DNA of 55,801 nucleotides from an uncultured Candidatus Saccharibacteria bacterium (GTDB lineage Bacteria > Patescibacteriota > Dojkabacteria > J137 > JAEUSD01): NCBI GenBank assembly GCA_964446595.1, contig CAYUPY010000003.1, positions 1 to 55,801 on the forward strand. The letters are read 5' to 3'. The position numbers and the translations under genes were made by a program. The notes beneath the pieces were generated by a model, which made no database searches, had not been told where the DNA came from, and saw only the letters and a list, made by a program, of their open reading frames with translations. This document shows, in pieces, positions 7,641-46,514 of this stretch; position 1 is the stretch's first letter, and every line of letters begins with the position of its first letter.

Positions 7641-10600
7641 TTACTTGTCTTTGTTTTTTCGGTTTTTAAGATACAAATAGATGGCGACACCTGCTCCCAC
7701 TATCAATAATAGCAAACAGATTACAAATAACCACCAAATACGATTACTCGATCTGATGACTAATAACTCAACCGTCTCCGATCTAATTATCCCTACGTTG
7801 GACTGAAGTTGGGCGAAAAGATTCAATTGTAAAGTGTCATCGTTAACTACGCGAGCCCGATACTCTATCCCCATTACTTGTCCTGGGGCAAGGTTAAACT
7901 CACCTGTACTTAAAACATTATCGGTTGAAACACGAATCTCGTCAGCAGGTAACACCTGGCTTAGACTGGTCAAAGAGCCATCCACTACCACTATTTGCGA
8001 TGGCAGTTGTTGAGTCAACTTAAGACGAGTCTGAATCTCATCAGTATTATTCTGAATTTCTAGTTTTACAATGAACTCTTCCAGTAAGTTGACCGCAGGC
8101 TCTCCATCATCTGTAATTATCTGTATCTTAATATCTCTAAAGTCAATTACAGCAAGAACACTACGCACAATAACTCTAGCGGCTGTGTTAATTAAGTCTC
8201 CCGTGCCTATTCGAATAAATATAGGGATGGAGCCAATAATATCACCCACAGGAACGTCATAACAGTTATATGAATTGGTTTCACTATTGTACACACACTC
8301 TTTTTCACCACCGTTTTCACCAACTTTAATACTTATTCCTAAGACAGGAGGTGCTACATCTGGGGGCATCTTTACTTCACAATCAGTAGTTCCAGACTGT
8401 TGGACTTCGCCACAACTAACTTGAGTACGATCTATATCATCCTCATCCAGTTGCGGACGCTCTTCTGAAACCGGAATATCTGTAGTTGTACTACTAGTGC
8501 TAGAAATTGTACTTGTGGTAGTACTTGTACTACTTGATGTTGTTGTAGTGGCAGAGCTACTAGTTGCTGATGAGGTGGAACTACTAGTTGCAACTGCAGT
8601 TATGCTGACAGTTTCTCCAGTGTTGGTTTGAGTCGAACTAGTCCAAGCAAAAATAGTATGCGTACCTACACTGCTACCTGTTGGCACACTAGCACAAGTA
8701 ACTGTAGTTCCTGCTCTTGAGCATCCTCCTACTGCCGCGGCACTACCAATTGATATCTGAAAATCACCTGGAAGCAATATGTGTGTAGGTAGACTAAATG
8801 TACATGTGGTAGTTGAGTTTATCTGCGCGGGATTACAACTAAAGGTTAATCCAGGGATATCAGCAGTACTTAAAGTCCGAAAAGGTGTGATGCCATTAAT
8901 ATCTGCGGCAGGTCCTGCGCCATTAGCATTTATAGCCTCTACTCTAAAATCATAAGTTATTCCAGCAACAAGTCCAGTTACAGTTGCCCCAGTTGTGGCA
9001 GTTACACCATCGGCAAATACACTGTAGAGACTATCACTATCCTCCTTGTAACTCACCCTATAGTCAGTAATGGTTAATCCGCCGTTGGTAGCGGGAGCAT
9101 TCCAGGTCAATGTTACCTGCTGCTCACCAGCTGTACCGTTTAAATTCTGAACAGCTCCTGGAACAGAAGTAATATTCACTGTTTCCCCTGAGTTGGTTTG
9201 TATAGAAGCTGTCCAACCATAAATCGCCTGACTTCCCACACTCACACCTGTAGGGATATTATTACACGTCACAGTTGTACCTACCCGTGAACACCCACCA
9301 GCCGGAGTACCTGCTCCAATTGATACCTGAAAATCACCTGGAAGCAATATGTGCGTGGCTAAATTGAATGAACAGGTTGTAGTACTATTAATTTGCGCTG
9401 ATGCACAAGCCATAGTTAACCCAGGGATGTCTGCACTACCCAGAGTACGGTAAGGGGTGAATCCTGTTATATCCGTATTCGGGCCAGTACCAACTGAGTT
9501 AACTGCGGCAACCCTGAAGTCATAACTAGTACCGGCTGTTAGTCCAGTTACAGTAGTTCCTGTAATCGAAGTCACCCCATCTGCATAAGAAGAGTATCCT
9601 GGCATACCAGTTTCGCGATAACTCACCACATAGTCTGTAATTGCCGCACCACCATCACTTGCCGGGGCATTCCATGTTAAGACTACTTGTTCTTCTCCCA
9701 CTGCCCCAGCCAAATTCTGCACAGCACTGGGAGCAGTCGCAGCGGGTGTTGGTGTAGCGCTTGCTACATTAGATATAGGACCTTGCCCTACGGAATTTAC
9801 GGCGCTTACCCTAAAATCATAGCTCACTCCGTTATTTAATCCCGTAACTGTAACAGCAGTGGATGCACTAGTACCATCAGCAAATATGCTATAGGTTGGC
9901 TGAGCTGTTTCCTTGTATTCAATTATATAGTCAGTAATAGCACTACCGTTATTGCCAGGAGCTGACCAAGAAAGATCAACTTCGGAATCTGATCCTGATG
10001 CACCCAAGTCTCCAATAGCCAAAGGCACATCGACTGGTGTAGCACTATCAACATTAGAATAGGCCCCTTGCCCTTGTGCATTTACAGCTGCTATCCGGAA
10101 GTCATAACTAGTACCATTAGCTAACCCTGTAATTGTAGCTCCAGTAGCTGCACTAACCCCGTCATTGAACACGCTATACGTCGGTTGGGCTGTCTCTTTG
10201 TACTCAACTATATAGTCTGTGATTGTGTTACCGTTATTATTTGGTGCACTCCAAGTCAAAGATGCTTCAGCAGCTCCTGCGACAGCATTCAGATCGGAAG
10301 CAGCTAATGGCGTGCCGGACGGCGTTGACTGCTGGGCCGCAGTGGGTGCACCTGTTCCGGTCGAGTTTACTGCTGCAACTCTAAATTCATAGTCTGTACC
10401 ATTTGCCAGCCCTGTGACCAATGCAGTTGTGGCAGCACTTACACCGTCGCTAAAAGTAGTGTAACTGGGTGCACCTACAACGCGATACTCAATTACGTAA
10501 TCAGTAATTACTCCACTTTCATACTGCTCCTCTGTCCCTATGGAAATGTGAGTAGTATTATTTGCCATGTTTTCGTATTCAGTGGCAATCCAGTCGGCTG

Positions 10601-11762
10601 TAAGCTCATCGTTCGTGAATCTAACCTCATCAATTACTCCAGCAAAATCATCTGTGTTAGTATTGTTGTTTCCAAGGTTCATAGTCCCAAAATGTGGACC
10701 AGCACTACATCCATTTGTAGTGCCACCTACATGAAGTGTTCCATCTAAGTAGTTATTAAAATCTGCTTGCCCAAAACCCAGATGATTATACTGGGAGGCG
10801 ACTTGGTACCATTGGCCATTATTAAATGTTACACCTGTTATTTCATTTGTGGCTGAGCCAAAACACATTAATTCAAATCTAACTTCTCCGCTCACATACC
10901 TCACCCTTCCCCGGGTACCCTCTGCGTAAAATATCTCTCCTGATAGGGCGTTATTTGTGAGATTAAACCAGGCGGAGAAAGTGCCCGTCTCCTTTATAGT
11001 ATAAATTGTTGGGTTATTTGCACTAGGTAGGCCTTCAAAATCAAAGCTATTACCTAACACTCCGCCACTGGTCCAGCCGCTCGTATTTGCTAAAGTGGCA
11101 TCGTAGCCATTGGGCGAGCTATCAGCAACTGTTGTTCCGCTACCCTCTCCAAAGTGATAGACAAAATCATAGTTTGCCCACAGTGCAACAGGGTTCTGCA
11201 AGCTTGTCGCACTTGGATTCGAATAATACATAAACAAATCAGTATCCAAGCTAGCACTCAACGTTGGTATTTGTACCCAAGCTTGTAATTCACCGGTTGC
11301 AGGATTAAAGCTTTCAATTTCGTGTTCTAATCTGGTAGTTCCATCTGACAGCGTAAAAATAATATCATCGGCGTCTAACTGTGCTTCTCCGATTAAATCG
11401 GCCTCAGTAATATTAATCAACGCGGGAAAGTTCAGAAGATCAACCCCGCCAACTACCATACTGGGGTCAATCGTAATTGGTTTTCGATAGAGCCAATTAC
11501 TGTTATACCAGTTATCTTGCGCACCATCATCTGCCGGCAGTGACCAGCTTAAGCTAACTTCGGTATCTCCTGCTGTCAGGATTAAGCCCTGAGGATCTGA
11601 CGGTGTAGCAGCACTTACAGGTATAGCGTTATATTGACTTACCCCTAGCTGAATGACTACTATTGCTAAATAAAAACCAAAGAATACAAGTAGACCAAGC
11701 ACCCACCAATATTTTCCAAATAGCTTTTCAAATTTATCTGCTGTCATTTTGAGGACATACAT
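7641..11762 (-). CDS. giant modular surface protein (TM - split FN3 with nested DUF2341/LamG - 4 more FN3 - 4-Cys modules - S/T linker - DUF11-like - C-terminal TM)
   Basis: 1373 aa with an N-terminal TM helix. FN3 signatures recur (SL(S/T)WS.P...G..ITDY.(V/I)EY...GL..G.(S/D)Y(D/E)FR(V/I).AVN). DUF2341-like block WLYRKPITID...LFMYYSNP. LamG-like block ending DEVRFTNDELTADWI. S/T linker at aa 1059-1094. C-terminal TM helix plus KNRKNKDK tail. Confidence 0.8.
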   Translation of the reverse strand: MYVLKMTADKFEKLFGKYWWVLGLLVFFGFYLAIVVIQLGVSQYNAIPVSAATPSDPQGLILTAGDTEVSLSWSLPADDGAQDNWYNSNWLYRKPITIDPSMVVGGVDLLNFPALINITEADLIGEAQLDADDIIFTLSDGTTRLEHEIESFNPATGELQAWVQIPTLSASLDTDLFMYYSNPSATSLQNPVALWANYDFVYHFGEGSGTTVADSSPNGYDATLANTSGWTSGGVLGNSFDFEGLPSANNPTIYTIKETGTFSAWFNLTNNALSGEIFYAEGTRGRVRYVSGEVRFELMCFGSATNEITGVTFNNGQWYQVASQYNHLGFGQADFNNYLDGTLHVGGTTNGCSAGPHFGTMNLGNNNTNTDDFAGVIDEVRFTNDELTADWIATEYENMANNTTHISIGTEEQYESGVITDYVIEYRVVGAPSYTTFSDGVSAATTALVTGLANGTDYEFRVAAVNSTGTGAPTAAQQSTPSGTPLAASDLNAVAGAAEASLTWSAPNNNGNTITDYIVEYKETAQPTYSVFNDGVSAATGATITGLANGTSYDFRIAAVNAQGQGAYSNVDSATPVDVPLAIGDLGASGSDSEVDLSWSAPGNNGSAITDYIIEYKETAQPTYSIFADGTSASTAVTVTGLNNGVSYDFRVSAVNSVGQGPISNVASATPTPAATAPSAVQNLAGAVGEEQVVLTWNAPASDGGAAITDYVVSYRETGMPGYSSYADGVTSITGTTVTGLTAGTSYDFRVAAVNSVGTGPNTDITGFTPYRTLGSADIPGLTMACASAQINSTTTCSFNLATHILLPGDFQVSIGAGTPAGGCSRVGTTVTCNNIPTGVSVGSQAIYGWTASIQTNSGETVNITSVPGAVQNLNGTAGEQQVTLTWNAPATNGGLTITDYRVSYKEDSDSLYSVFADGVTATTGATVTGLVAGITYDFRVEAINANGAGPAADINGITPFRTLSTADIPGLTFSCNPAQINSTTTCTFSLPTHILLPGDFQISIGSAAAVGGCSRAGTTVTCASVPTGSSVGTHTIFAWTSSTQTNTGETVSITAVATSSSTSSATSSSATTTTSSSTSTTTSTISSTSSTTTDIPVSEERPQLDEDDIDRTQVSCGEVQQSGTTDCEVKMPPDVAPPVLGISIKVGENGGEKECVYNSETNSYNCYDVPVGDIIGSIPIFIRIGTGDLINTAARVIVRSVLAVIDFRDIKIQIITDDGEPAVNLLEEFIVKLEIQNNTDEIQTRLKLTQQLPSQIVVVDGSLTSLSQVLPADEIRVSTDNVLSTGEFNLAPGQVMGIEYRARVVNDDTLQLNLFAQLQSNVGIIRSETVELLVIRSSNRIWWLFVICLLLLIVGAGVAIYLYLKNRKNKDK
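8589..9734 (-). repeat. in-frame tandem duplication (about 190 aa x2: FN3 + 4-Cys module) inside the giant gene
   Basis: Unit A is aa 677-867 and unit B is aa 868-1058. Examples: RTLGSADIPGLTMACASAQINSTTTCSFNLATHILLPGDFQVSIG vs RTLSTADIPGLTFSCNPAQINSTTTCTFSLPTHILLPGDFQISIG. The DNA string ctgaaaatcacctggaagcaatatgtg occurs in both units. Confidence 0.8.
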
Positions 11763-11781: not shown

Positions 11782-13446
11782 CTAGTTAAAATCAATTGTA
11801 TAGGCTAATTTATCAGAAAATCTACCGTTTGAATTGGTTACGACAACCTCAGCACAATTTGGATTCTTATAGTTATTTCTAAACACTGCAAAATCAGCAC
11901 TATCTAGTCGACAATTATTACCTGCCAAATCGAGTGTACAGTTAATATTATCCTGCAAATAATTCTGAGCAAAGACAGTGAAGTCACTAGTACTTACTGC
12001 ACCGTCTTGATCATAGTCTCCGAAACAAAAGTTATCTTGTACACTTTGACTTTCTATGATCTGAAAGTCAATTTCCAGTGGCACCCCAATATTTCCCTGC
12101 TCATCTTTGGGGACGATGCGCAGCGTATGGTTTCCGATTCTTAACTGAGAGAAGTTATAGATATTATCAGCTCCCCCATCCCCCCCGATGGCTAGTGGAG
12201 CATTACCTTCTGTACGAATGTACTGATCATTAAAATAAAAGTCCACTGCAGCTGCTTCTTGGGATAAACCTTCAGCCAAAATAGAAAGGTTGTTTCCAGT
12301 TTGAGTCAGATCTATGATATCGTCATTAACCAGTGTTTTTATATTAACCCCAGTCTCAATATTAACAAGCACTGCCCTGTCTACAGTTATATTGTCAGGC
12401 TCAACTGGCTGCGAAGTTGTCGTTGAGGTAGTTGTGCTTGGCTGGCTGCTGGAGCTACTTATCCCTGCAGGATAAGATCTAGTTACCTGAATTTCATCAA
12501 AATATACGTAGGTATCTGTTTGTGATGGATAGCTACCACCAAAGAATGTACTCATGAAGAGTTTATCGATAGATAAAGAATCAGTTTTTCTGAATTCATA
12601 GTCAGATTTGCTCTGTACCTTAGTTCCGTCCAACCATGTTTCTACAATTCCATTCCTCTTTCCTACATCGTTCATTTTAACTCTAAGAATTATTTGGTAC
12701 CAACGCTCTTTATTATATCTAAACCCATCCCAGCCGTCTGCTTGGCCATAATCACCAGGAGTGTTTGCGTGATAGACATATGTTGAAGCAACTCCTTGAT
12801 TAGTCAGTGCACATTCAAATCCGGGGTAGCACGCACACCCAGCACTACCCGAACTGCAGCTTATATCATGCCAATGCAACCTTACACTCCAACCATTGTA
12901 CCCATCAGTATCATTACCTCCTGAATTACATTCTCCCCCACACAAGCCATTTAATTTGCCGTTTGGAAACCAAGCAAACGTATTGTCAAACTTTATTTTA
13001 TAGCTAAAGTAGAGCTCATCATACTTTTTACCCAAACTATGCTTAAAATCTATCCCCCCACCTTGGGGTAGACGTTGATCCTTATTGTAGAACATCCTGA
13101 GCACTTTCCCTTGCGTAGAATCGTTTACAATACTCAACCACCCATTGTCCAAGCCTGGGCTAGCACTAGGCGAATCCCAATCATCGTTCCATTTGCTTCT
13201 AGTGTAAACTCCTGCTGAGTGGTGCTCAAAATTGTTAAAGTAGACTTTATCATCTTCGCAATCCGACTCACCTTGACAAACTCCAAGAATATCGGGATTG
13301 AACTCTGTATTTACAACGCTAAATTGAATGTAAGCAAAAGCTAGCAATAAAATCGACGCAAGTGTAAGTACGACAAATCTTAGCCTAGAGTAACTTTGCA
13401 TTTGTCCGTTTATAATAACTATAAATAATGGTTTCATCTTATCCAT
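11782..13446 (-). CDS. secreted/anchored PL14-like (concanavalin-fold polysaccharide lyase-like) protein with C-terminal dockerin-like module
   Basis: 554 aa with an N-terminal TM helix. The block GGGIDFKHSLGKKYDELYFSYKIKFD...NGKLNGLCGG...GWSVRLHW...WYQIILRVKMN...NGIVETWLDG...LFMSTFFGG resembles the Polysacc_lyase (PF14099/PL14-like) pattern. S/T linker, then a dockerin-like GDYDQDGAVSTSDFTVFAQNYL...LDSADFAVFRNNY. Confidence 0.65.
   Translation of the reverse strand: MDKMKPLFIVIINGQMQSYSRLRFVVLTLASILLLAFAYIQFSVVNTEFNPDILGVCQGESDCEDDKVYFNNFEHHSAGVYTRSKWNDDWDSPSASPGLDNGWLSIVNDSTQGKVLRMFYNKDQRLPQGGGIDFKHSLGKKYDELYFSYKIKFDNTFAWFPNGKLNGLCGGECNSGGNDTDGYNGWSVRLHWHDISCSSGSAGCACYPGFECALTNQGVASTYVYHANTPGDYGQADGWDGFRYNKERWYQIILRVKMNDVGKRNGIVETWLDGTKVQSKSDYEFRKTDSLSIDKLFMSTFFGGSYPSQTDTYVYFDEIQVTRSYPAGISSSSSQPSTTTSTTTSQPVEPDNITVDRAVLVNIETGVNIKTLVNDDIIDLTQTGNNLSILAEGLSQEAAAVDFYFNDQYIRTEGNAPLAIGGDGGADNIYNFSQLRIGNHTLRIVPKDEQGNIGVPLEIDFQIIESQSVQDNFCFGDYDQDGAVSTSDFTVFAQNYLQDNINCTLDLAGNNCRLDSADFAVFRNNYKNPNCAEVVVTNSNGRFSDKLAYTIDFN
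11854..12027 (-). other. dockerin-like module, copy 1
   Basis: FGDYDQDGAVSTSDFTVFAQNYLQDNINCTLDLAGNNCRLDSADFAVFRNNYKNPNC. A DxDxDGxxxxxD loop plus helix, then a Cys-bracketed second loop plus helix. Confidence 0.6.
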
Positions 13447-13469
13447 TCACAGAGGGAATAGCAAGTTAG

Positions 13470-15761
13470 TTAATAAAATTTTGCTGTATAGACTGAAGCT
13501 TTCCCGTCCTTATACCCTAGGTACCTCACGTTCCCGGTTTCCTGTGTGTATCGTACATCAATCAACAGTGTAGCGGAGGCCGTTGCAGGGATAGTGTAAC
13601 GTCTCCAGGTGGCGCCTTTATCATAACTCCGGTGCAGCGCTGCACCTTCAAATACTGTGATAATCCCTCTATCATCAATCACGATATGACCAGGGTACCT
13701 TCCTGGGTAACTTCCGGCATTCGTCCAGTTATTTCCGTTATAAGTGCGCCAGATTACTTCCCAGTCAGTGCTATCAATCGCAAGGGTGGCAAAAGGTTGG
13801 CCAGTTGGGTAAATACCTAGTCCCGTGTAATTATGCGCTCTTTTAGGCGTTAATGGATCGGTAAGCGCTACTTCTCCAGTTTTGTCGGTCATTGGTAGCT
13901 GGTTGTATGTCTGGCCTTTGGAGTTTTTCCAGGTTTGACCGCCGTCATCGGAACACGCATATAGCACATGTGTGATTGAGTTATTGTTACCACCATCACC
14001 ATCTTTTCCGAAAGCTTGAACACCGGTAGAAACATGCATACGATTGTGTTTATCAAAAATAACACGCGGCTTCATTGGCTGATACATGCGGGAATCTGGG
14101 GTTTTAGCTGACCAGAATAGAGTCGACATTTCATAAGCGTAGTCTCTACCACCTAACTCTACCCACGTTCCCTTCCCATTTGGACTGGCAACGTATTTAT
14201 TTACATCAGCTCCCATATTTTGAGGATTATCTCCTGCGTCGAATCGGACCCGTTCACGATGCGAGAGATAAAGTTCGCCATTACGATCCTTGGCAAAGAA
14301 AGGATATGAGACAAAGCAAGAAACAGGTGTTCTGCTGCCAGTTGTTTCTGGGATTGGGAAGTTTGCCCAGCAGCTCTTTTCTACTGTCCCACGAGGGCCT
14401 TCATCTCCTACGAACTCGAATTCTGTAATGTCGCGTGGACGCTTGGAGATCCAATACTGCCAAGGATAATCTTTATATTCGTATCCTGTCTGATCTTGCA
14501 ACAAGAATGGTGCATAATGAATATTTCCAATGTAGTGAATGTACCCATACTTATCTAGTGCTACAGAACCAATTGAATGGTAAAGGTTTTTTTCAGTTCT
14601 ATCGAGAATTGTATTTGTGGTAATGGTGCCATTTGGCGTCTTCTTCGCAATCTTGGTGTGGTAATTACTACCAACTTTCTCGATATAAATTGCATAAATT
14701 GTGCCATCTGTATCGGTAACTACTGGTGCGGCATAGTCGCCTTGAATAATATCGTCGGCTGGAAACTCCATCTCCTTAACAACATTAATTGACTCTGTAG
14801 GCGTAGGTTCGCTCACACACTCAGGACAGGCAACCACTACTCCACAAGCAGCCTGTGCAATTGTGCCACCTGACGAAGAACTACTTGCTGTCGAGCTTGA
14901 GCTAGGTGAAGAACTTGAGGAAGAGGCCACTGGAACTTCCCAGTCAGGGTTAATGACTAAACTATCAGATTTATAAAGCCGTGCAAACTCTGCTAAGTCT
15001 GCGGCATCTAGCCGACAATTATTTCCTATTAAATCCAGGGTACAATTAATATTACTGGCAAGATAGTTTTGGGCAAAAAGACTCAAATCCGATACGTCTA
15101 CTGCACTATCATTGTCATAGTCACCCCAATAGCGGAAGCTGTAGCTTTGCTCTAGAAGTTCAAATTCTATTGCATCGAAGTCTACATAACCACCGAGTGG
15201 TTCAATACTGAGAACTTGCTCGCCTGAGGACAAATTTATTTCCTGCAGTGCTGCTACCCCTGGTGTGTTCCAATTTGCTACTTGCGGTACGGGTATAGTT
15301 GTAACTGAGGAGCCGTTAATGAGAAAGTTTATTTGCCTACCAGCATCAGCACTATAAGTGTGTAACCTGATACCATATCTACCTTTTACAGGAACATTAA
15401 TAGTATATCTTAGACTCTCACCGGGAAGAAACAGTCCCACAACATGATTCCCAGACTGCGTCGGATGAAGTTTAATATCTACATCTGTATTCTCATCACT
15501 ACGATAAGTAGAATCTAAGCCGTTTCCTGGGGTGTCATCTATATAAGCCCTGCCGTTTACACCGCGATTAAAGTTCTCTGACTCTAGCTGTCCCGCATTG
15601 ACGTTAAAAGGAGTGGAATTAAACGGAGTTCCGGCATCAATTATACCTAGTACTGCCCCTTGATTTACTTGCAAGACGAAAAACAACAGTGTTAGTACTG
15701 CAATTAAAAACAGTAATAATTTTGCTAGTATTAATAATCTTTCCCTTTTGCTAGCGGGCAT
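13470..15761 (-). CDS. anchored CBM6-like + internal dockerin-like + BNR/Asp-box beta-propeller protein (putative glycosidase/lyase)
   Basis: Start at ATG 15761 (MPASKRERLLILAKLLLF..., TM helix), just after the upstream ORF stop; the track ORF extends to 15824. CBM6/35-like ESENFNRG...GRYGIRLHTYSA...VDFDAIEF. Asp-box motifs SDDGGQTW and YDKGATW in the C-terminal half. Possibly BNR_4/GH145-PL42-like, which is a weak call. Confidence 0.65.
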   Translation of the reverse strand: MPASKRERLLILAKLLLFLIAVLTLLFFVLQVNQGAVLGIIDAGTPFNSTPFNVNAGQLESENFNRGVNGRAYIDDTPGNGLDSTYRSDENTDVDIKLHPTQSGNHVVGLFLPGESLRYTINVPVKGRYGIRLHTYSADAGRQINFLINGSSVTTIPVPQVANWNTPGVAALQEINLSSGEQVLSIEPLGGYVDFDAIEFELLEQSYSFRYWGDYDNDSAVDVSDLSLFAQNYLASNINCTLDLIGNNCRLDAADLAEFARLYKSDSLVINPDWEVPVASSSSSSPSSSSTASSSSSGGTIAQAACGVVVACPECVSEPTPTESINVVKEMEFPADDIIQGDYAAPVVTDTDGTIYAIYIEKVGSNYHTKIAKKTPNGTITTNTILDRTEKNLYHSIGSVALDKYGYIHYIGNIHYAPFLLQDQTGYEYKDYPWQYWISKRPRDITEFEFVGDEGPRGTVEKSCWANFPIPETTGSRTPVSCFVSYPFFAKDRNGELYLSHRERVRFDAGDNPQNMGADVNKYVASPNGKGTWVELGGRDYAYEMSTLFWSAKTPDSRMYQPMKPRVIFDKHNRMHVSTGVQAFGKDGDGGNNNSITHVLYACSDDGGQTWKNSKGQTYNQLPMTDKTGEVALTDPLTPKRAHNYTGLGIYPTGQPFATLAIDSTDWEVIWRTYNGNNWTNAGSYPGRYPGHIVIDDRGIITVFEGAALHRSYDKGATWRRYTIPATASATLLIDVRYTQETGNVRYLGYKDGKASVYTAKFY
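14964..15128 (-). other. dockerin-like module, copy 2 (internal position)
   Basis: WGDYDNDSAVDVSDLSLFAQNYLASNINCTLDLIGNNCRLDAADLAEFARLYKSD, located between the CBM6-like domain and the S-rich linker. Confidence 0.6.
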
Positions 15762-15768
15762 AAATAAG

Positions 15769-16059
15769 CTATAAAATTTCTTGGAGCGCTTCAAACCATT
15801 TCTGTGCCATTTTGTTTTCCCCACTTACATTTGGGTGCTCTCCGTCACGTAAGTCTGTTGAAGAATTAAACCCTGTATATTGATCGACTAATATCACTGG
15901 CGATATTGCTGTATTAATTTCAGCGATCATAGCCGGAATGGCGTTATTAAAGGGTTCAATCGCCTCTTCTCCACTCTTATTATGAGGGATAATCTGTGCG
16001 ATTAAAAGTACTATTTGAGGATTTTTTGCTCTTAATTCAGAGATAATGCTTTTAAGCAA
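15769..16059 (-). pseudogene. remnant of an SGNH/GDSL hydrolase (C-terminal third only)
   Basis: The 96-aa ORF begins right after an in-frame TAA, with only a TTG start. It contains SGNH block V (DGEHPNVSGENKMAQKW) and the preceding VLLIAQIIP strand. The GDS(L) block I and GxND block III are absent, and only 43 nt separate it from the upstream gene. Confidence 0.55.
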
Positions 16060-16102
16060 TTAAATGGCCTAGTCAAAAGACCCAGCCATGCCGGGACATA
16101 AG

Positions 16103-18730
16103 TTAGTTACAATAACCAGCTTTTTTGTATGCAGCTGAGAATACGGATAGATCGTTTGCATCTAGACGACAGTCTCCTCCGGATAAGTCCAGTCCACAGT
16201 TGATATCACTTCGGAGGTAGTTCTGTGCAAATACAGATAAATCTCCAGCATCTACCTGGCTATCACCAGTATAATCTGCTGCACATGCTGTCACCTCTGA
16301 ATCTTGGATAGCTAAGTCTAAATAGTCAAAGTCCGCGTAATTACCGCCAGCCATCTCAACTCTTATTATGTTCTCGCCTTCTTCTAGACTGATATTAACT
16401 GGTTCGGAAAAAGCTATCTCCTCCCAAGAACCTACTTGTGGTACATTCACGGTAGCTTCTAGCTGGTTGTCAACATAAATTCTTAATTGCCGACCAGCGT
16501 AAATGCTCCTTACTTGAGCTATTAGCTCATAATCCGCAGTCAGATTTGCTTCCACTGTATAGTGTAGCCATTCTCCTTGCTCAAATAGACCGATCACGTA
16601 TCCGGTACCATTAGCGTTTCGCTTCATATCTACATCTCCTCCTCTGTATGTGACTGTGGCGTCTAGTCCATTCCCTGCACTCTTATCATAATATGCACCG
16701 CCATTACTTCCTTCATTAAAATTCTCTGCCTCTAATCTACCAGGGGCACTAACTCCGCCGCCGTATGCCGTACCTGGGTTTCCAATTGTCGATGTGCTAC
16801 TGCTACTTTGAGAGGTAGAGACTGAGCTACTACTCGTCTGCTGCTGACCGCTAGAATTGATTGTCACTATCAAAGCATCATTCGTACCAGATGCAAGATT
16901 GAAACTACCGTTTACAACATTTCCTCCTGGCAGTGTAACTCGCACATCGTAGTCACCGTGAAAGCCACGGAAGTTGGCAACGCCACTAGCGTTGGTTGTG
17001 GCCGTCACCTCAGTGCTCCATTCATCACGCAATGCCTGATAGCGACGGCCAGCAGCGTTAACTGTCCAGTTTTGTTCAACAATTGCGGCATCATCGCGCC
17101 AGTGCTGCCCATCCCAGAATCCCCACATTAAAATACCGCCAACGTTACGGTGGCTAAACGCAGTACGATAAAGATTTTCTAGGCTATCTGCAGCTTCATT
17201 TTTATTTTGGTAATCTTGGTCAAACTCTGTCACCCAAATTGGAGTGTTGCCAAGCTCCTGAGTTAGTCGTTCGAAGCGATAGTAGACATCATTAGGATTA
17301 ATTGGCTTATTGGCTTCAAAGTGACCCTGCACACCAAGTAAGTCTACCTGTCCACCTGCGGCTCTTAAGTTTTTTACTAACTGAATATATGCATCTAATC
17401 TATCACCTCCACTATACGATCTAGGAGAAATTACATGATAGTCGTTCACAGTTGCCTTCACATCAGGATCAAGCTGCTTCACACGCTTGTGCATCCTAGC
17501 GGTCATTGGAATACCGTAGAAGTTACCATGCGTCATTTCATTATTAATATCCCAATGCTCTAAATAGTCCGCATAGCGAGGAACAACAGCATTAATATGC
17601 TCCATTACCTCAGCTTCTAATTCTGAATTTCCTCCATCTTTTTCTTGTTGGCTAGTTCTATCTGACAAGGCATGTACCCATGGAGGATCAAAATCACGGT
17701 AGGTAACTCCCCAGACTAGTGAGTGTCCGCGCATCCTTAAACCATTCTTGCGTGAAAAATCAACCAAATTATCTGCTCTTTCAAAGTCCACTCTATCACG
17801 AGAGTACTCAAAAGCAGGCCATTTGTGTCTACTTTCGGCCACTGTCCAATTAAAGTTCTCCACCACAAAACGCTCATAAGTATTAAGCGAAGAAGGTGTA
17901 CCGTTCTTCCAATCTTGAATTTGATTAATATTTATCGCAGTACCAAAAGCGAACTCGTTATTTGTCTGCGTAATTGCCACGTTTGCACCCGAAATAGGAT
18001 TACCGCTTCCACTCACTACTCTGACTTGCAGGTCTCGTTTCCGAATTTGTTCTATTCTGGCGTTTGCATCCGCTTTCCAGTCGCCAGTACCACCACCTAA
18101 TTTATACATCACCACGTCATCTACATAAAAATCGCCGGTGGATGTACCTGAGCTTTCAATATAAAGTCTCATCCCACTTAAACTACCCGACTGCTGGTGA
18201 TTATAAGTGCCTTTTAGTTGCACCCAACTTCCTGAACCTACAGTCTCGGTGTCAATCCCAACATAGCTTGTAGAACTATCGTTTCTTCGCATTGTCAGCT
18301 TCAGGCTTTGGCTACCGGAGGCAGATCGTACGTAAGCATAAACCTCGTAAATACCTCCCTGTTGAAAGCTGGAGGTAGGAAGGTTTTGACCTGGACCATG
18401 GTAGGTCTCAGATCTGTTAGATACTAGTAGTGATTGACAACCAGAATTCTTTTGATTGGAAACTGCTGTAATTGTACCGCCACCTGATGTCCACCCAACA
18501 ATTCCATCCTCAAAACTAGAGTTTTGCACAAAATTCCCATTTACGTCTTCATGTTGAGAAGCACAACCAAGCACATCTGAATCATTAACGGGGGATGGGT
18601 TGGAAAAGTTGCCATTAATCCACCAGGAAACTAATATTAGTAAACCAATAGATGCTAATAGTAGTGGTATTTGTAAATACTTGGGTAGGTTAATGTACAA
18701 TTTTTCTTTCACTATACAAGGATAAAGCAA
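16103..18730 (-). CDS. modular GH10 endo-beta-1,4-xylanase (CBM4_9/22-like + GH10 + Ig-like + CBM6-like + dockerin-like)
   Basis: 875 aa with an N-terminal TM helix. CBM4_9 pattern NSSFEDGIVGW...FYVDDVVM. GH10 pattern FAFGTAI...ENFNWTVAESRHKW...RMRGHSLVWG...WDINNEM (acid/base Glu) ...LLGVQGHF...IWVTEFD (nucleophile Glu). CBM6-like RLEAENFNEG...ADFDYLDL. The start codon is uncertain (TTG 18730 or GTG 18712). Confidence 0.85.
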   Translation of the reverse strand: MLYPCIVKEKLYINLPKYLQIPLLLASIGLLILVSWWINGNFSNPSPVNDSDVLGCASQHEDVNGNFVQNSSFEDGIVGWTSGGGTITAVSNQKNSGCQSLLVSNRSETYHGPGQNLPTSSFQQGGIYEVYAYVRSASGSQSLKLTMRRNDSSTSYVGIDTETVGSGSWVQLKGTYNHQQSGSLSGMRLYIESSGTSTGDFYVDDVVMYKLGGGTGDWKADANARIEQIRKRDLQVRVVSGSGNPISGANVAITQTNNEFAFGTAININQIQDWKNGTPSSLNTYERFVVENFNWTVAESRHKWPAFEYSRDRVDFERADNLVDFSRKNGLRMRGHSLVWGVTYRDFDPPWVHALSDRTSQQEKDGGNSELEAEVMEHINAVVPRYADYLEHWDINNEMTHGNFYGIPMTARMHKRVKQLDPDVKATVNDYHVISPRSYSGGDRLDAYIQLVKNLRAAGGQVDLLGVQGHFEANKPINPNDVYYRFERLTQELGNTPIWVTEFDQDYQNKNEAADSLENLYRTAFSHRNVGGILMWGFWDGQHWRDDAAIVEQNWTVNAAGRRYQALRDEWSTEVTATTNASGVANFRGFHGDYDVRVTLPGGNVVNGSFNLASGTNDALIVTINSSGQQQTSSSSVSTSQSSSSTSTIGNPGTAYGGGVSAPGRLEAENFNEGSNGGAYYDKSAGNGLDATVTYRGGDVDMKRNANGTGYVIGLFEQGEWLHYTVEANLTADYELIAQVRSIYAGRQLRIYVDNQLEATVNVPQVGSWEEIAFSEPVNISLEEGENIIRVEMAGGNYADFDYLDLAIQDSEVTACAADYTGDSQVDAGDLSVFAQNYLRSDINCGLDLSGGDCRLDANDLSVFSAAYKKAGYCN
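16106..16285 (-). other. dockerin-like module, copy 3
   Basis: CAADYTGDSQVDAGDLSVFAQNYLRSDINCGLDLSGGDCRLDANDLSVFSAAYKKAGYCN at the C-terminus of the GH10 protein. Confidence 0.6.
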
Positions 18731-30321: not shown

Positions 30322-30582
30322 TTAAGATAGTTTAAATAGGTCTTTGACTAGTGAACGTAGTTTGGTTATTTGTGAATCAGGATCTTGCTGGCTTTGTTCT
30401 ACGCAACAAATAGCTTCGTTTTCGATCAGTTTTTCCCCTAGTGAGGCTAAACTAGCACGAACAGCCTGGATCTGTACAATAATATCATTACAGTCTCGAT
30501 TCTCGTCAATCATGACTGAGATGCCGTTTAACTGTCCTTTAATCCGGCTTACTCGTTTTTTAATATCTGTTGGTGCGACCAT
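30322..30582 (-). CDS. CsoR/RcnR/CstR-family (DUF156) metal- or thiol-sensing transcriptional repressor
   Basis: 86 aa. RIKGQLNGISVMIDENRDCNDIIVQIQAVRASLASLGEKLIENEAICC is colinear with M. tuberculosis CsoR (RGHLDGIVRMLESDAYCVDVMKQISAVQSSLERANRVMLHNHLETC). Confidence 0.8.
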   Translation of the reverse strand: MVAPTDIKKRVSRIKGQLNGISVMIDENRDCNDIIVQIQAVRASLASLGEKLIENEAICCVEQSQQDPDSQITKLRSLVKDLFKLS

Positions 30583-30585
30583 AGC

Positions 30586-30602
30586 ATACCCCCATGGGGT
30601 AT
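30586..30602. promoter_or_regulatory. CsoR-type operator (ATACCCC-cat-GGGGTAT inverted repeat)
   Basis: Perfect 7-3-7 G/C-tract inverted repeat flanked by AT. It lies 3 nt upstream of the csoR-like start codon and abuts the -10 box. It has the same architecture as published CsoR-family operators (ATACCCC...GGGGTAT type). Confidence 0.6.
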
Positions 30603-30631
30603 ATATTACACCTCAAAGAAAAATCTGTCAA
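30603..30631 (-). promoter_or_regulatory. near-consensus sigma70 promoter of the csoR-like/trxA/trxB operon
   Basis: The minus strand reads TTGACA - 17 nt (gatttttctttgaggtg) - TAATAT. The -35 overlaps the TGA stop of the upstream GT2 gene. Confidence 0.6.
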
Positions 30632-31356
30632 AACAAATTAAACTTTAGAATTTCAGCCAGTGCTTTAAAGCCATCTTTGAAAGCCTTCATATGCTTACCC
30701 TCTTCAATGCTACGAGGGAAATAAGTAATAGGAAGTTGTTGCCAAGCAATTCTGGACCCGTCAGCATGGCGAAATTTGGAGAACTTCGCAGTTATTTCTG
30801 GTTCAAAACCGAAGTTAGATTTTGATTCGATTGATTTAGCTAACTCACGGAAGATATCTCCCTTAGCCATCTTATAACAAACTTCCATATCCCTAGTCCA
30901 CATTTTGGCTCTCAGTCCTGTAAAGAAAGCTGAAACTAAACTTAGGAAACTATTTCCAAGCCAGTTTTGCAAATATATGACCTTATTATTACGCCCGAAC
31001 CGATTACCGTAGACTACATCTACATTGGTAGTCTTAAACAGCTTTACAAATTCAACAAGCTCAGTAGGGTCATATTCTAAGTCAGCATCCTGGATCACAA
31101 CTAGATCGCCGCTAGAAGCTAGAATACCCTTTTTGACTGTTTGGCTTTTGCCAACATTCTTTTTATTTTCAAGGATCTTATAATGCTTTTCTTTTTTTAA
31201 GTCGGCCAGGATCTGAGCTGTGCCATCAGTTGAGGCATCATTGACTATGACTATTTCTTTTTCTAGGCCAAAGTCTACAGTTTCCACTTTATTTAAAAGT
31301 TGCGAGAGAGTAGCCTGTTCATTGTAGACTGGAATAATTAGTGAAAGTTTCTTCAT
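30628..31356 (-). CDS. family 2 glycosyltransferase (polyprenol-phosphate sugar transferase-like)
   Basis: Start MKKLSLIIPVYNEQ at 31356, which avoids overlap with radC. Motifs VNDASTDGT and IQDADLEYDP (DxD). Confidence 0.8.
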   Translation of the reverse strand: MKKLSLIIPVYNEQATLSQLLNKVETVDFGLEKEIVIVNDASTDGTAQILADLKKEKHYKILENKKNVGKSQTVKKGILASSGDLVVIQDADLEYDPTELVEFVKLFKTTNVDVVYGNRFGRNNKVIYLQNWLGNSFLSLVSAFFTGLRAKMWTRDMEVCYKMAKGDIFRELAKSIESKSNFGFEPEITAKFSKFRHADGSRIAWQQLPITYFPRSIEEGKHMKAFKDGFKALAEILKFNLF

Positions 31357-34457: not shown

Positions 34458-35034
34458 CGCTAAAGCTTACCTTTACATTTTCTCTTTCACCTTCTGCTAC
34501 CTCAAAGAATTCGCGTCGTTTAATGTTTGGAAAGAATCCCACAATAAAATTGTTAGGGAACACCACAATCTGAGTGTTGAGATCACGAGCCACTCCATTA
34601 TAGTAACGGCGAGCACCTTCGATTTCAGTTTCAATATCTTCTAGGGTATTTTGCAGCTCTAGGAAATTCTTATCTGACTTTAGCTCAGGATAAGCTTCCG
34701 AAACAGCAAATAAACTCTTTAAGGTAGAGCGCAACTCCCCTTCCATCACTCCTAATTCCTTTGGATCATCTGTATTCATCATTCCAGAGCGCAATTCGGA
34801 AACGCGGGTAAAGATTTTTTCCTCTTGTTTTGCGTAGCCTTTGACTGTTTCTACCAAGTTGGGAATAAGGTCAAAACGCTTCTTCAGTTGTACGTCAATG
34901 CCACTCCAAGCCTCATCAGCCAACACATTTAACCTCTGTAATCGGTTGTAAATAGCTACCACAAAACCTACCAACCCTAGCCCTACAGCTATTACAGCAC
35001 AGGCACAGAGAAAAATAATAAAAATTAGGTCCAT
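34432..35034 (-). CDS. lemA: LemA family protein
   Basis: N-terminal TM helix. Motifs YNRLQRL...AWSGIDVQLKKRFDLIPNLVETVKGYA...SEAYPELKSDKNFLELQ...ARRYYNG. Confidence 0.85.
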   Translation of the reverse strand: MDLIFIIFLCACAVIAVGLGLVGFVVAIYNRLQRLNVLADEAWSGIDVQLKKRFDLIPNLVETVKGYAKQEEKIFTRVSELRSGMMNTDDPKELGVMEGELRSTLKSLFAVSEAYPELKSDKNFLELQNTLEDIETEIEGARRYYNGVARDLNTQIVVFPNNFIVGFFPNIKRREFFEVAEGERENVKVSFSDESAKAKE

Positions 35035-37808: not shown

Positions 37809-38588
37809 ATGGATTATCCGACCTTCAATTTGTTCGATGTTGTTGTGCCCAAGATTGAAGCACAGAGTTACGACGGTATCTCTCAGCCAACCTTTGGCCT
37901 ACTTGATATCGCTGAAGGTGAAAATCAGGCAGAACTTAACTTTACCACCGATACCACCTCTCCTGCAGTAGGTGAGACCTTTACTGTGGATGTGGAAATT
38001 TCTACAAAAGACTTTACTATTAATGAGTACCAGATAATTGTAGATTTTGACACTACTAAGCTTAGTGTACTTGATTCAGAACCAGATACCGCAGGAACCC
38101 AAGTTGAGTTTCTAGACTTAGTATACGTGGTAGAACCAGGAGATAATAACGTCCAGGATGGCAGAATAACATTAATTGCCCGTACTCCTTCCGGCAACGC
38201 GCTACAGGTCAACAGGGCTGTAGCTAGAATCACATTTCAATCACAAGAACAGGGAGTAACGGTCATTGAACCAGTAGCTACCTTCGAAGGTACAAAACTA
38301 ATTAATCAAAATGGTGTAGTTATAGACGCCAGCTTAAATAGCTTAACTCTCAATGTTGGCTCCGCAAGAACTAGTAGCGCGACCTCCACTAGCTCAAGTA
38401 CCTCTGCAAACGCGACTACCACTAGCGCCACTAGTTCATCTAGCGGACCAACTCAACCACCTGATCAAATACCTAACACAGGCATTTTTGATGATGGAGG
38501 GCTTGCAATACTGCCGCTTGCTATTGGTTTATTACTCGTAGTAGTAGGTGCACGACTAAGAGGTGAAGCAAAAAAGGGCAAGCCTTAG
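37809..38588 (+). CDS. cohesin-like domain protein with S/T linker and C-terminal IPNTG sortase-type sorting signal
   Basis: Cohesin-like pattern GETFTVDVEISTKDFTINEYQIIVDFDTTKLSVLD...DGRITLIARTPSG...ARITFQSQEQG...LNVG (nt 37929..38360). S/T linker. IPNTG + hydrophobic helix + RLRGEAKKGKP (nt 38469..38585). No obvious N-terminal signal peptide. Confidence 0.6.
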   Translation: MDYPTFNLFDVVVPKIEAQSYDGISQPTFGLLDIAEGENQAELNFTTDTTSPAVGETFTVDVEISTKDFTINEYQIIVDFDTTKLSVLDSEPDTAGTQVEFLDLVYVVEPGDNNVQDGRITLIARTPSGNALQVNRAVARITFQSQEQGVTVIEPVATFEGTKLINQNGVVIDASLNSLTLNVGSARTSSATSTSSSTSANATTTSATSSSSGPTQPPDQIPNTGIFDDGGLAILPLAIGLLLVVVGARLRGEAKKGKP

Positions 38589-44684: not shown

Positions 44685-46514
44685 ATGTTAGTTTTATTTT
44701 CCTATACTGAATGTGATAAATTAGCCAAAAACAGAGTGAAACAACAATACAACCGCTTTCAACTTGCCATCATCACCGGTATTAGCATTATGCTAATAGG
44801 TGTTTTATTTGCATACTTCCAGTTAAGTAGCTTTGGAGCAAATAACGCAGGCCGAAATAACAACGTGGCCTTAAATGTCTCCAATAATGTTGCACTTACT
44901 GGTGGTGGTACTGGAGTTGTAGTAGAGATCACAAGCGATGACTTTGTGGCAACTACAGGTAGTGGTGTTTTAAATATTGCAGAATTGGTGATCGAATTTG
45001 ATAATACAATACTAAGGCTAGATGACATGCAGGCTAATTCAAGTCTTCTAGCTCTTAACGAAAATATAAACAACTCAAACGGAAGCGCTACTATTGATTT
45101 GGCTCAACCAGTAACCGAATTCCCTGCTGGTACTACACTTGTAACGTTGACTTTTGCAGCCTTAGAGCAGACAGATACCGTTGTTAGTCTTGACCATAGT
45201 ACTACTTGGGGATACCCAAACCGTATGAATTTCGCAGCTAGCAATACTGACTTTGATGTCGACTTCCCTGAACCTTCAAGTAGTGCCACAACTAGCTCAT
45301 CTACTGCTAGCGGTTGTGCTAATACAGCAGTAGGCAATGGACGTTCACATCAGATCTGTGCAAACTACTTTATATTGCAAGCTGAAGACTTCAATAATGG
45401 CGGGAACGGCGTGGGATACAATGATCTTGACGCTATGGCTACTGATAGTGAATATGATCCAAACTATCGTTCAGGTGAAACTGTTGATGTAAAAGCTCCA
45501 GTAAATGGAGTACGTGCCGTGGGTTATAACCGTGCAGGTGAATGGTTAAACTTCACAGTTAATGTTCCTCAGGCGGGTGCTTACAGAGTAACTGCACGAG
45601 TCGCTATGGATAGTAGTTCCGGTCAGCTTGGCGTTGCAGTAAACGGTGGGTCTAACGTGGCGACCGGTACAGTACCAAATACAGGCAACTACAATACATT
45701 TGCTGATCTAGTGTTGAATAATAACGTAACCTTAGCCGCCGGTTCTCAGACAATCCGATTTAATGTTATTCAACAGTACTTTGATATCGATTACCTGAGA
45801 TTTGATCTTGTAGCTGCATCAAGCTCATCAACAAGCACTAGTACCTCTACAGCAACAACATCGTCAGCTACAACGACTACAACTAGCTCTGTATCAACAA
45901 CAACAACAACAACAACAACAACTAGCGTCTCTACAACCACGAGTTCTGCGACAACTAGTTCAGTAAGTACAACTACAAGTAGTTCTAGCAGCTCAGCTGG
46001 TTCTGATATCTCTAGATTGTATAGATTCTACAACACTGCAACTGGTGCACACTTCTTTACCCCAGATGAGGGACAGGCATTAAGAGTCTGTGAAAGATTT
46101 GTACCTCCATTCCAGAATGAGAGTATCGGATTCTATGTATATGGCAACCCAGGTGCTGGAAGAATCCCTGTATACCGATTCTACAACCCAAGTAAAGGTA
46201 CCCACCTATACATGAGCGGAGATGAGGGGAAAAGAGCAATTACAGAAGACCCTAGATTCAATACTGTATATCAAATCGAACCGATTACTGGAGAACCAGC
46301 ATTCTATGTAAACGCAGAAGCAGCTGGAACCCCAGTATATAGATTCTACAATGCGAAAACTGGTGCTCACTTTTACACCGCATCAATTACACAAAGGAAT
46401 ACACTGTTGACCAACCCATTGTTCTCAGCATTCCAATATGAAGGTGTTAAGTACTATGTACCAGCCGGGCCAAACGGTAGTGAAGGCTACACATGTCCTC
46501 AAGCCGCACAGTAG
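44685..46514 (+). CDS. anchored modular protein: cohesin-like + CBM6-like + long S/T linker + 3 DUF5648-type repeats
   Basis: 609 aa with a TM helix (LAIITGISIMLIGVLFAYF). Cohesin-like GVVVEITSDDFVATTGSGVLNIAELVIEFDNTILRLDD...GSATIDLAQP...TLVTLTFAALEQ (about nt 44901..45210). CBM6-like QAEDFNNGG...GAYRVTARVA...FDIDYLRF (45369..45806). Repeats at 46011..46463. Confidence 0.65.
   Translation: MLVLFSYTECDKLAKNRVKQQYNRFQLAIITGISIMLIGVLFAYFQLSSFGANNAGRNNNVALNVSNNVALTGGGTGVVVEITSDDFVATTGSGVLNIAELVIEFDNTILRLDDMQANSSLLALNENINNSNGSATIDLAQPVTEFPAGTTLVTLTFAALEQTDTVVSLDHSTTWGYPNRMNFAASNTDFDVDFPEPSSSATTSSSTASGCANTAVGNGRSHQICANYFILQAEDFNNGGNGVGYNDLDAMATDSEYDPNYRSGETVDVKAPVNGVRAVGYNRAGEWLNFTVNVPQAGAYRVTARVAMDSSSGQLGVAVNGGSNVATGTVPNTGNYNTFADLVLNNNVTLAAGSQTIRFNVIQQYFDIDYLRFDLVAASSSSTSTSTSTATTSSATTTTTSSVSTTTTTTTTTSVSTTTSSATTSSVSTTTSSSSSSAGSDISRLYRFYNTATGAHFFTPDEGQALRVCERFVPPFQNESIGFYVYGNPGAGRIPVYRFYNPSKGTHLYMSGDEGKRAITEDPRFNTVYQIEPITGEPAFYVNAEAAGTPVYRFYNAKTGAHFYTASITQRNTLLTNPLFSAFQYEGVKYYVPAGPNGSEGYTCPQAAQ
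46011..46463 (+). repeat. 3 x YRFYN..(T/K)G.H(F/L)(F/Y) repeats (DUF5648-type), protein 1 of 3
   Basis: RLYRFYNTATGAHFFT..., VYRFYNPSKGTHLYM..., VYRFYNAKTGAHFYTASITQRN...FQYEGVKYYVP. Confidence 0.7.

Follow-up and report, generated by a model that had tools for sequence, protein, structure and literature searches.

Bacterial dockerins are found at the C-terminus, at the N-terminus or in the interior of the proteins that carry them. In Ruminococcus flavefaciens, ScaE is a sortase-anchored anchoring scaffoldin with a single cohesin, and the dockerins of Neocallimastigomycota fungi are small, cysteine-rich, disulfide-stabilised docking modules on carbohydrate-active enzymes (CAZymes) that have no EF-hand loops. 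Cohesins and dockerins have also been reported from bacteria of the Candidate Phyla Radiation (CPR): in Candidatus Shapirobacterales, as expressed proteins, and Candidatus Roizmanbacterium (bioRxiv 10.1101/2021.08.21.457207), as genes or 'cellulosomes' in the Saccharibacterium T. rhizospherense (bioRxiv 10.1101/211649), and in an epibiotic Saccharibacterium, where a dockerin-domain protein is essential (PMC10633639). Dojkabacteria have in addition been flagged as CAZyme-rich (PMC7038595). Here we analyse a stretch of 55,801 nucleotides from an uncultured Candidatus Saccharibacteria bacterium, placed in the Dojkabacteria by its GTDB lineage (contig CAYUPY010000003.1 of assembly GCA_964446595.1; hereafter the window). 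Three adjacent minus-strand genes of this window share a module of ~63 amino acids, which belongs to a family with four conserved cysteines (the 4-Cys module). This module is a divergent bacterial dockerin, the same window encodes two cohesins, and the two together probably form a simple enzyme display or clustering system.

The three enzyme genes were delimited from open reading frames (ORFs), Pfam matches and hydropathy, and the modules with a profile of the module family, whose E-values are given in brackets.

11782..13446, minus strand: gene 1, PL14, 554 aa
11851..12042, minus strand: dockerin module 1, gene 1 aa 469-532, all four Cys (E 1.2e-26)
13470..15824, minus strand: gene 2, CBM35/6 + BNR_4, 784 aa
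14958..15146, minus strand: dockerin module 2, gene 2 aa 227-289, internal, inner Cys only (E 1.5e-25)
16103..18730, minus strand: gene 3, CBM4_9 + GH10 + CBM6, 875 aa
16106..16300, minus strand: dockerin module 3, gene 3 aa 811-875, protein end, all four Cys (E 2e-25)

The assignment of this module to the dockerins rests on several comparisons, three of which (the structure model, the profile search of the PDB and hhalign) used an alignment of 59 sequences of the 4-Cys module, A2. The AlphaFold2 model of module 1 built on it has a mean pLDDT of 91.4 and consists of two loop-helix units (helices at residues 19-28 and 49-58) joined by the inter-loop bridge that is typical of EF-hand pairs. When this model was compared with the PDB using Foldseek, all 15 matches were dockerins, each taken from a cohesin-dockerin complex, the best being 2y3n_B (probability 1.0, TM-scores 0.64/0.70, root-mean-square deviation 1.4 A). 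Dockerins also rank first in the profile search of the PDB, again with 2y3n_B (E 2.3e-5), and hhalign aligns the module family with 12 canonical two-loop dockerins, 11 of which match Pfam Dockerin_1, at a probability of 98.7 % (E 2.7e-16) over 54 columns that span both segments. Together, the fold and the two lines of homology identify the module as a genuine but divergent bacterial dockerin, as the original prediction had proposed on the basis of its EF-hand pattern. A dockerin of the fungal type was considered and rejected, as the Foldseek matches are all dockerins of the bacterial type and hhalign aligns the family with canonical ones. Among curated models, NCBIfam NF041540 (dockerin_GC) fits best at full length, covering profile positions 1-65 of 67; it matches 44 of the 59 family members at E <= 1 (best 6.3e-7). 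Pfam Dockerin_1 reaches this level in only 20 of the 59 (best 1e-5).

Regular-expression and family-profile searches of all six frames found exactly three copies of the module in the window (E 4e-27 to 8e-26), the next-best match lying at E 0.27. The DNA copies differ at many third-codon positions, a conserved Arg being encoded for example by CGA, CGG or CGT; this synonymous divergence indicates that the copies have been kept by selection on the protein and rules out a recent duplication. Chance similarity or low complexity is rejected on the same conservation and on profile E-values of ~1e-25.

The first of the two segments contains a canonical 12-residue Ca2+ loop, D-x-[ND]-x-[DN]-G-x-[IV]-[DN]-x-x-D, which reads DYDQDGAVSTSD, DYDNDSAVDVSD and DYTGDSQVDAGD in window modules 1 to 3; column statistics over 79 modules give a family consensus of D-Y-N-x-D-G-x-V-D-x-x-D. 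The expectation of a dockerin/EF-hand pattern in the first half was thus borne out by a perfect DxNxDGxVDxxD, and the degenerate, Cys-bracketed loop and helix foreseen in the second half are also present. The segment 2 loop has 13 residues, D-[IL]-x-G-x-[DN]-C-x-L-[DN]-x-x-D, and does not conform to the canonical 12-residue Ca2+ loop: in the hhalign alignment one residue is inserted, ligand position 3 is hydrophobic and a Cys replaces Gly6. The helices that follow the two loops are nearly symmetric, with DFxxFAxNYK in segment 1 and DFxxFAxxYK in segment 2.

Four cysteines are conserved in the family. C1 stands two residues ahead of loop 1, C2 past helix 1, C3 within loop 2 and C4 ~5 residues beyond helix 2, so that the outer pair C1/C4 brackets the module and the inner pair C2/C3 spans loop 2. 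The outer cysteines occur as FC-FGDY...NPNC in module 1 and AC-AADY...GYC in module 3; module 2 lacks them and has Y...V instead. The original prediction had recognised two invariant cysteines, which correspond to the inner pair; the outer pair of modules 1 and 3 had been missed, and the family count is four. Over the 79 modules the cysteines are distributed as follows.

All four present (CCCC): 72 of 79 modules
Outer pair lost (-CC-): 4 of 79 modules, window module 2 among them
Inner pair lost (C--C): 1 of 79 modules
Single deviations: 2 of 79 modules, C4 being merely shifted in one

Calculated from these counts, with kinship between the sequences ignored, the chance that four losses of C1 coincide with four losses of C4 is ~7e-7. 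Such loss in pairs supports two independent disulfides over one four-ligand metal site, and suggests that the four cysteines form the bonds C1-C4 and C2-C3. The first of these would link the two ends of the module, and the second would staple the degenerate loop 2, possibly offsetting a weakened or lost second Ca2+ site.

Within the three enzymes the module is combined with catalytic and carbohydrate-binding domains. Gene 1 encodes, in order, an N-terminal hydrophobic segment, a PL14 domain (aa 110-318; Polysacc_lyase_14, E 1.2e-31), a Ser/Thr-rich linker, an Ig-like beta domain, the 4-Cys dockerin and a tail of 22 aa. Gene 2 has an N-terminal hydrophobic segment, a CBM35/6 domain (aa ~114-223; CBM_35), the internal dockerin, a Ser-rich linker and a BNR_4 beta-propeller (aa 389-702; E 1.6e-10), and gene 3 an N-terminal hydrophobic segment, CBM4_9 (aa 66-194; CBM_4_9), GH10 (aa 257-551; Glyco_hydro_10, E 2.5e-38), a Ser/Thr-rich linker, CBM6 (aa 698-805; CBM_6) and the dockerin at its C-terminus. 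Hydropathy analysis places the hydrophobic segment in all three enzymes, and Ser/Thr-rich linkers are likewise present. Much of the original prediction for these genes therefore stands: the coordinates were right, the three quoted peptides occur verbatim in the ORFs, the PL14-like, CBM-plus-propeller and CBM4_9 + GH10 + CBM6 calls are matched by Pfam, the module is internal in one protein (gene 2, aa 227-289 of 784), and N-terminal hydrophobic segments and linkers are found. The length of the module, given as ~55 aa, had to be revised to the ~63 aa stated above.

Linkers in these proteins lie between the other domains, while in all three the dockerin abuts a beta-sandwich domain (CBM6/35 or Ig-like) without one. 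A CBM6-dockerin junction of the same kind occurs in the metagenomic protein P0053. By analogy with X-dockerin pairs, the beta-sandwich and the dockerin may constitute a functional dyad.

The 4-Cys module is by no means confined to this window. An exhaustive profile search of 1.84 billion representative sequences returned 571 matches at E <= 1e-3; among the best 150 of these, which were inspected, 78 contain the complete module, two of them being the window's own, so that the family comprises at least 76 clusters (50 % identity) from elsewhere. The other sequences of the best 150 are ordinary tandem dockerin repeats that match segment 1 only. Within the family, 57 proteins have the module at the C-terminus, 13 at the N-terminus and 8 in the interior, and most carriers are surface proteins or act on carbohydrates. 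Cohesin is the commonest Pfam family to share a polypeptide with it (13 of the 76 carriers, which come from other metagenomes), together with Beta_helix (11), CBM35/6 (~11), DUF4215 (10), GH5 (7), GH16 (3) and GH10 (2), and with GH8, PL14, BNR_4 and others. Proteins with two cohesins and a 4-Cys dockerin are known from three of these sequences, P0091, P0025 and P0124. Few clusters bear organism names; those that do belong to candidate division WS6 / Candidatus Dojkabacteria, and one WS6/Dojkabacteria member cluster carries the UniRef label 'Dockerin domain-containing protein'.

More restricted scans added little to this picture. A word-index search for homologues with module alignments, ill suited to a domain of 65 aa, retrieved only the window's own fragment. 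A metagenome scan with an alignment of a module sub-group yielded three loci only, and a scan of a genome collection with patterns from three module sequences yielded only two loci, both from Latescibacteria and both with canonical dockerins that act as homology bridges. In these metagenome-assembled genomes (MAGs) of Candidatus Latescibacteria (L001 18-1583 and L002 568-4089), a single polypeptide contains a canonical two-loop dockerin (GDFNGDGWVNLSDFSLFAQNYG...) and, directly after it, a cohesin-like segment and a type IX secretion system (T9SS) C-terminal sorting domain, which suggests possible self-assembling surface proteins.

Two further genes of the window, both on the plus strand, encode cohesins.

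37809..38588, plus strand: cohesin protein 1, called gene of 259 aa with the ORF open from 37773 (AlphaFold2, Foldseek, homologues)
44685..46514, plus strand: cohesin protein 2, 609 aa (phmmer, profile, Pfam)

Both are real cohesins, as had been surmised for 37929..38360 and ~44901..45210; the domains now extend over 37926-38363 and ~44871-45284, and they belong to different subfamilies. In protein 1 the cohesin core (nt 37926-38363) is followed by a Ser/Thr linker and then by an IPNTG motif, a transmembrane (TM) helix and a basic tail (nt 38469-38585). A sequence search of the PDB with cohesin 1 returned nothing, and only the fold search identified it: the AlphaFold2 core (aa 40-185) has a pLDDT above 90, and every one of its 50 highest-ranking Foldseek matches in the PDB is a cohesin (best E 7.6e-9, TM-score normalised to the target up to 0.78). 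We found 21 homologues of ~250 aa, one of which is named Candidatus Doudnabacteria and one of which, P0164, has a precomputed match to PF00963. The sorting signal of the window protein consists of IPNTG, LAILPLAIGLLLVVVGA and RLRGEAKKGKP, and the succession of [IL]P[DN]T[GA], hydrophobic helix and basic tail is kept in the 21 homologues, with P and T invariant. This sortase-type family also has a conserved N-terminal motif, MDxxExxLxLIPKVxAQ...QPTFG, and the gene order SecG, 131-aa ORF, cohesin and ApbE is kept in four loci (the window, L003, L013 and L014).

Cohesin protein 2 comprises an N-terminal TM segment, the cohesin (nt ~44871-45284), a Ser/Thr linker, CBM6 (aa 266-374), a second Ser/Thr linker and DUF5648 repeats, with Pfam matches to CBM_6 and DUF5648. 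Its cohesin matches P0091, P0025, P0104, P0024, P0053, P0021 and P0076 in phmmer searches (E 6e-22 to 3e-8) and scores E 3.6e-39 against a local profile; the matched regions of these module-bearing proteins themselves pass the Pfam Cohesin gathering score. The DUF5648 repeats (YRFYNxxxGxHFYT-like) are a C-terminal module common to three secreted proteins of the window: this cohesin-CBM6 protein (44685-46514), a DUF5060+fn3 protein (47710-50865) and an S8 subtilase (50813-52774), the ORFs of the last two overlapping by 53 nt. DUF5648 may be another surface-anchoring or glycan-binding module.

Several observations connect the module with cohesins. Two cohesins and three dockerins lie within 35 kb of one small genome. 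In WS6 OLB20 (L006 10001-14579, JYNZ01000002.1), a protein of 1327 aa carries a cohesin at its N-terminus and a 4-Cys dockerin at its C-terminus, and it is followed by a gene whose 208-aa product combines a signal peptide and a single cohesin with a C-terminal TM anchor; this is the classic adaptor/anchor arrangement, and the two proteins make a good candidate binding pair. At a further locus, L008, a single-cohesin gene adjoins a gene for two cohesins, DUF4215 and the 4-Cys dockerin. In a syntenic relative (sample ERR15087793), the two cohesin genes and the GH10-dockerin gene of the window are all retained, and the orthologue of the latter (P0004, 837 aa) still has the module; the gene after GH10 differs there, indicating that the enzyme set is flexible. 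Wide occurrence of the module in genomes free of cohesins had been named in the original prediction as an outcome that would speak against pairing; the data point the opposite way, both in the proportion of carriers with a Pfam cohesin and in the OLB20 gene pair. No module was found in the 10-kb flanks of the cohesin 1 homologues L012-L014, a result that is uninformative because the modules of the window are themselves ~19 kb from cohesin 1.

We propose that the dockerin modules and the single-cohesin surface proteins constitute a simple system for displaying or clustering enzymes of the same cell, a reading to which we assign a probability of about 0.68. The enzymes would be exported and/or tethered to the membrane via their N-terminal hydrophobic segments, and their dockerins would be held in shape by a single canonical Ca2+ site together with two disulfides. 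Each of the three proteins (PL14 lyase, CBM35-BNR_4 protein and GH10 xylanase) would dock through its module onto a surface protein with a single cohesin, a role for which the window offers two candidates: the putatively wall-anchored, sortase-type (IPNTG) cohesin at 37809-38588 and the putatively membrane-anchored cohesin-CBM6-DUF5648 protein (44685-46514), which would contribute substrate-binding modules of its own. A dual binding mode would be compatible with the near symmetry of the helices. In this way polysaccharide-degrading enzymes would be displayed or clustered one-to-one on the cell surface, as opposed to being gathered in a multi-cohesin cellulosome. Of the two candidates, the sortase-type cohesin 1 is weakly favoured as the cognate partner by analogy with CipA-type scaffoldins.

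A number of points weigh against this proposal. Firstly, the domains fall short of curated thresholds. Isolated modules 1-3 score 14.5, none and 13.1 bits against Pfam Dockerin_1 (gathering score 22.9 bits), in the first half only, and the full-length enzymes give no match to this model at E <= 1; against NF041540 (cut-off 29 bits) the modules score 19.9, 17.0 and 24.4, and neither window cohesin protein matches Pfam Cohesin (PF00963, gathering score 24.1 bits), even at E <= 10. The Pfam check suggested by the original prediction thus recovered the CAZyme domains but left Dockerin_1 below its cut-off and Cohesin unmatched. Secondly, cohesin 1 lacks an N-terminal hydrophobic or signal segment, the 19-residue Kyte-Doolittle maximum of its first 80 aa being 0.38 against 2.0-2.9 in other secreted proteins. 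Without a signal peptide, its export, including that of its 230-aa N-terminal domain, would be unaccounted for. Furthermore, no sortase family was found among the window ORFs scanned with Pfam, which take in those of at least 120 aa apart from 30344-30724, 34432-35034 and 54863-55771. Thirdly, each window cohesin protein has one cohesin, so that the system lacks the multi-cohesin scaffoldin of a cellulosome in the strict sense, and three dockerins face two cohesins. Cohesins of the cohesin 2 type often share a polypeptide with a 4-Cys dockerin elsewhere and, by analogy with CipA, this type may not be the cognate partner. Finally, the long N-terminal hydrophobic segments may themselves anchor the three enzymes in the membrane, which would make docking unnecessary for attachment to the cell.

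A bolder reading goes further than the display system proposed here. It holds that the 4-Cys dockerins and their partners are a new cohesin-dockerin type found mostly in CPR/Patescibacteria (WS6/Dojkabacteria and Doudnabacteria-like lineages), in which a disulfide replaces the second Ca2+ site, folding and docking depend on redox state instead of or beside calcium, and the partners are sortase-type cohesins without signal peptides. We regard this idea as possible, though on balance improbable. If it were true, ultra-small bacteria would build a covalently wall-anchored enzyme display from parts that standard models miss.

It is unlikely, in our judgement, that the module has a dockerin fold and yet does not bind cohesins, acting rather as a Ca2+- and disulfide-stabilised module that serves the cell wall, the S-layer, glycans or the stabilisation of carbohydrate-binding modules, with the window cohesins having other ligands. 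Dockerin-like modules of a 'non-cellulosomal' kind are numerous in genomes that have no cohesin, and Peer et al. reportedly described in 2009 that such modules are widespread outside cellulosomes. The scores under curated cut-offs and the degeneracy of loop 2 would fit such a role, as would the linker-free contact with a beta-sandwich in all three window proteins and P0053, the enzymes' own N-terminal hydrophobic anchors and the cohesin 1 homologues L012-L014 with no module within 10 kb. Yet a Pfam cohesin resides in 13 of the 76 carriers, cohesin and dockerin genes adjoin each other in L006 and L008, and the window has both kinds of domain inside 35 kb of a small genome. Moreover, the module keeps the symmetric DFxxFAxxYK faces, which form the cohesin-binding surface of canonical dockerins, and all of these points argue for docking.

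Less probable again is a different chemistry of the four cysteines, namely a single Cys4 metal (Zn) site or free thiols, giving a metal-stabilised dockerin fit for anoxic habitats. Many CPR bacteria inhabit anoxic water, where extracellular disulfides are uncertain, and dockerins of the GC type such as P0075 bear C-x-x-C at the equivalent place. A single Cys4 site was nonetheless rejected as the main reading in favour of two disulfides, since the pairs are lost independently, the outer pair alone in four modules including window module 2 and the inner pair alone in one.

It is very doubtful that the pairs act between cells, mainly in adhesion, with dockerin proteins or cohesins of a presumed episymbiont engaging partners on its host: the CPR-like lineage, the homologues and synteny of cohesin 1 that lead to Candidatus Doudnabacteria, the named WS6/Dojkabacteria carriers and the host-glycan targeting suggested for the essential dockerin-domain protein of the epibiotic Saccharibacterium (PMC10633639) fit this idea, but both partner types lie in one genome segment and are kept together in the relative, and the carriers are mostly CAZymes with carbohydrate-binding modules.

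Around cohesin 1 the window shares synteny with a MAG of Candidatus Doudnabacteria, and it has typical CPR-like features such as a split transketolase; searches for tRNA and Rfam features found none in the window. Directly downstream of the CAZyme genes lies a gene for a 1373-aa surface protein (7641-11762, minus strand) with DUF2341, Laminin_G_3, five fn3 domains, a long Ser/Thr stretch, N- and C-terminal hydrophobic helices and two repeats of ~95 aa with four conserved Cys per repeat. The gene that directly precedes the GH10 gene on its upstream side (18748-20037, minus strand) joins a SLOG/LOG-like domain (Lysine_decarbox, LDcluster4) to an S-adenosylmethionine (SAM) methyltransferase domain, and the fusion keeps its position in the syntenic relative (L005 6938-8221). 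Two class-I tRNA synthetases of the Trp/Tyr type (21896-23464 and 24821-26329, minus strand) have N-terminal add-on domains, tRNA_bind in one (522 aa) and a YbaK-like tRNA_edit in the other (502 aa); their counterparts in the relative (L005 930-2024 and 2873-4012) are 364 and 379 aa long, with the catalytic domain alone listed. It is unusual for a W/Y synthetase to be fused to an editing domain.

The implications of the proposed system are both practical and biological. As its modules and cohesins fall short of the thresholds of Pfam and NCBIfam, cohesin-dockerin systems will be undercounted when CPR genomes are surveyed for CAZymes, and the 59-sequence module alignment and two cohesin alignments could seed new models. 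If the two intramolecular disulfides and the degenerate second Ca2+ loop are as proposed, they would represent a new structural solution in a natural bacterial dockerin, and designer enzyme assemblies could gain from them a useful orthogonal docking pair that may be independent of Ca2+ or redox-switchable. More generally, the locus adds evidence that some small-genome CPR bacteria invest in the degradation of xylan and other polysaccharides at their surface and are not wholly reliant on a host.

Our literature searches found no paper on a natural bacterial dockerin with intramolecular disulfides or on a 'GC-type' dockerin, and a 2025 cellulosome review covers engineered intermolecular disulfides only; the chemistry of Cys-containing dockerins, whether disulfide or metal, seems to have been little studied. 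The original prediction regarded cohesin-dockerin assembly in a reduced genome as the notable feature. This is weakened by the earlier CPR reports, the UniRef dockerin label and the existence of a curated GC-type family, but the 4-Cys subtype itself appears to be undescribed.

With canonical dockerins (PF00404; for example that of Pseudobacteroides cellulosolvens Cel48, PDB 2Y3N chain B), the window module shares two loop-helix units, a canonical loop 1 and a duplicated helix motif, as well as its location on CAZymes beside carbohydrate-binding modules, its C-terminal, N-terminal or internal position and its co-occurrence with cohesins. Unlike them, it has a 13-residue loop 2 with an inserted residue, a Cys at Gly6 and no ligand at position 3, and four cysteines in all. 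Over its full length the module is matched best by the curated model of the GC-type dockerins, NF041540. Two members of that family, P0080 (59.6 bits) and P0075 (77.9 bits), share the outer pair C-x-x-D...G-x-x-C with the 4-Cys module, a trait that we take from these two sequences as opposed to a published definition of the type. P0075 also has two inner cysteines, and the spacing from C2 to the loop Asp12 equals that of the 4-Cys module. GC-type loop 2 is a canonical DxNGDG, however, with the third Cys just before it (C-x-x-C), whereas in the 4-Cys module the third Cys lies inside the degenerate loop. On these sequence features, the CPR-type family is best described as a relative of GC-type dockerins with the inner pair moved into a degenerate loop 2. 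P0075 itself is a 360-aa metagenome protein with four tandem GC-type dockerins, each C...C-x-x-C...C, and a T9SS C-terminal domain, the only recognisable sorting signal among the GC-type members examined, which makes it appear not to derive from a CPR lineage; Cys-bearing dockerins are therefore not restricted to CPR bacteria.

Cohesin 1 resembles R. flavefaciens ScaE in combining one cohesin with a Ser/Thr linker, an LPXTG-like motif, a TM helix and a basic tail. It differs from ScaE in having no signal peptide and no detectable sequence similarity to cohesins of the PDB, and in being a core-genome gene beside SecG and ApbE, outside any scaffoldin cluster. The fungal dockerins, in contrast, are unrelated to the 4-Cys module in both fold and sequence. 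The earlier CPR reports likewise join CAZymes with cohesin and dockerin annotations, and read them as a simple cellulosome or a glycan-targeting device; they are built on database annotations of standard domains and describe no 4-Cys subtype, family or covariation of cysteines. Overall, the system in this window is very probably of a known kind, but its parts, one subtype of dockerin and two of cohesin, appear to be undescribed and mostly escape standard models.

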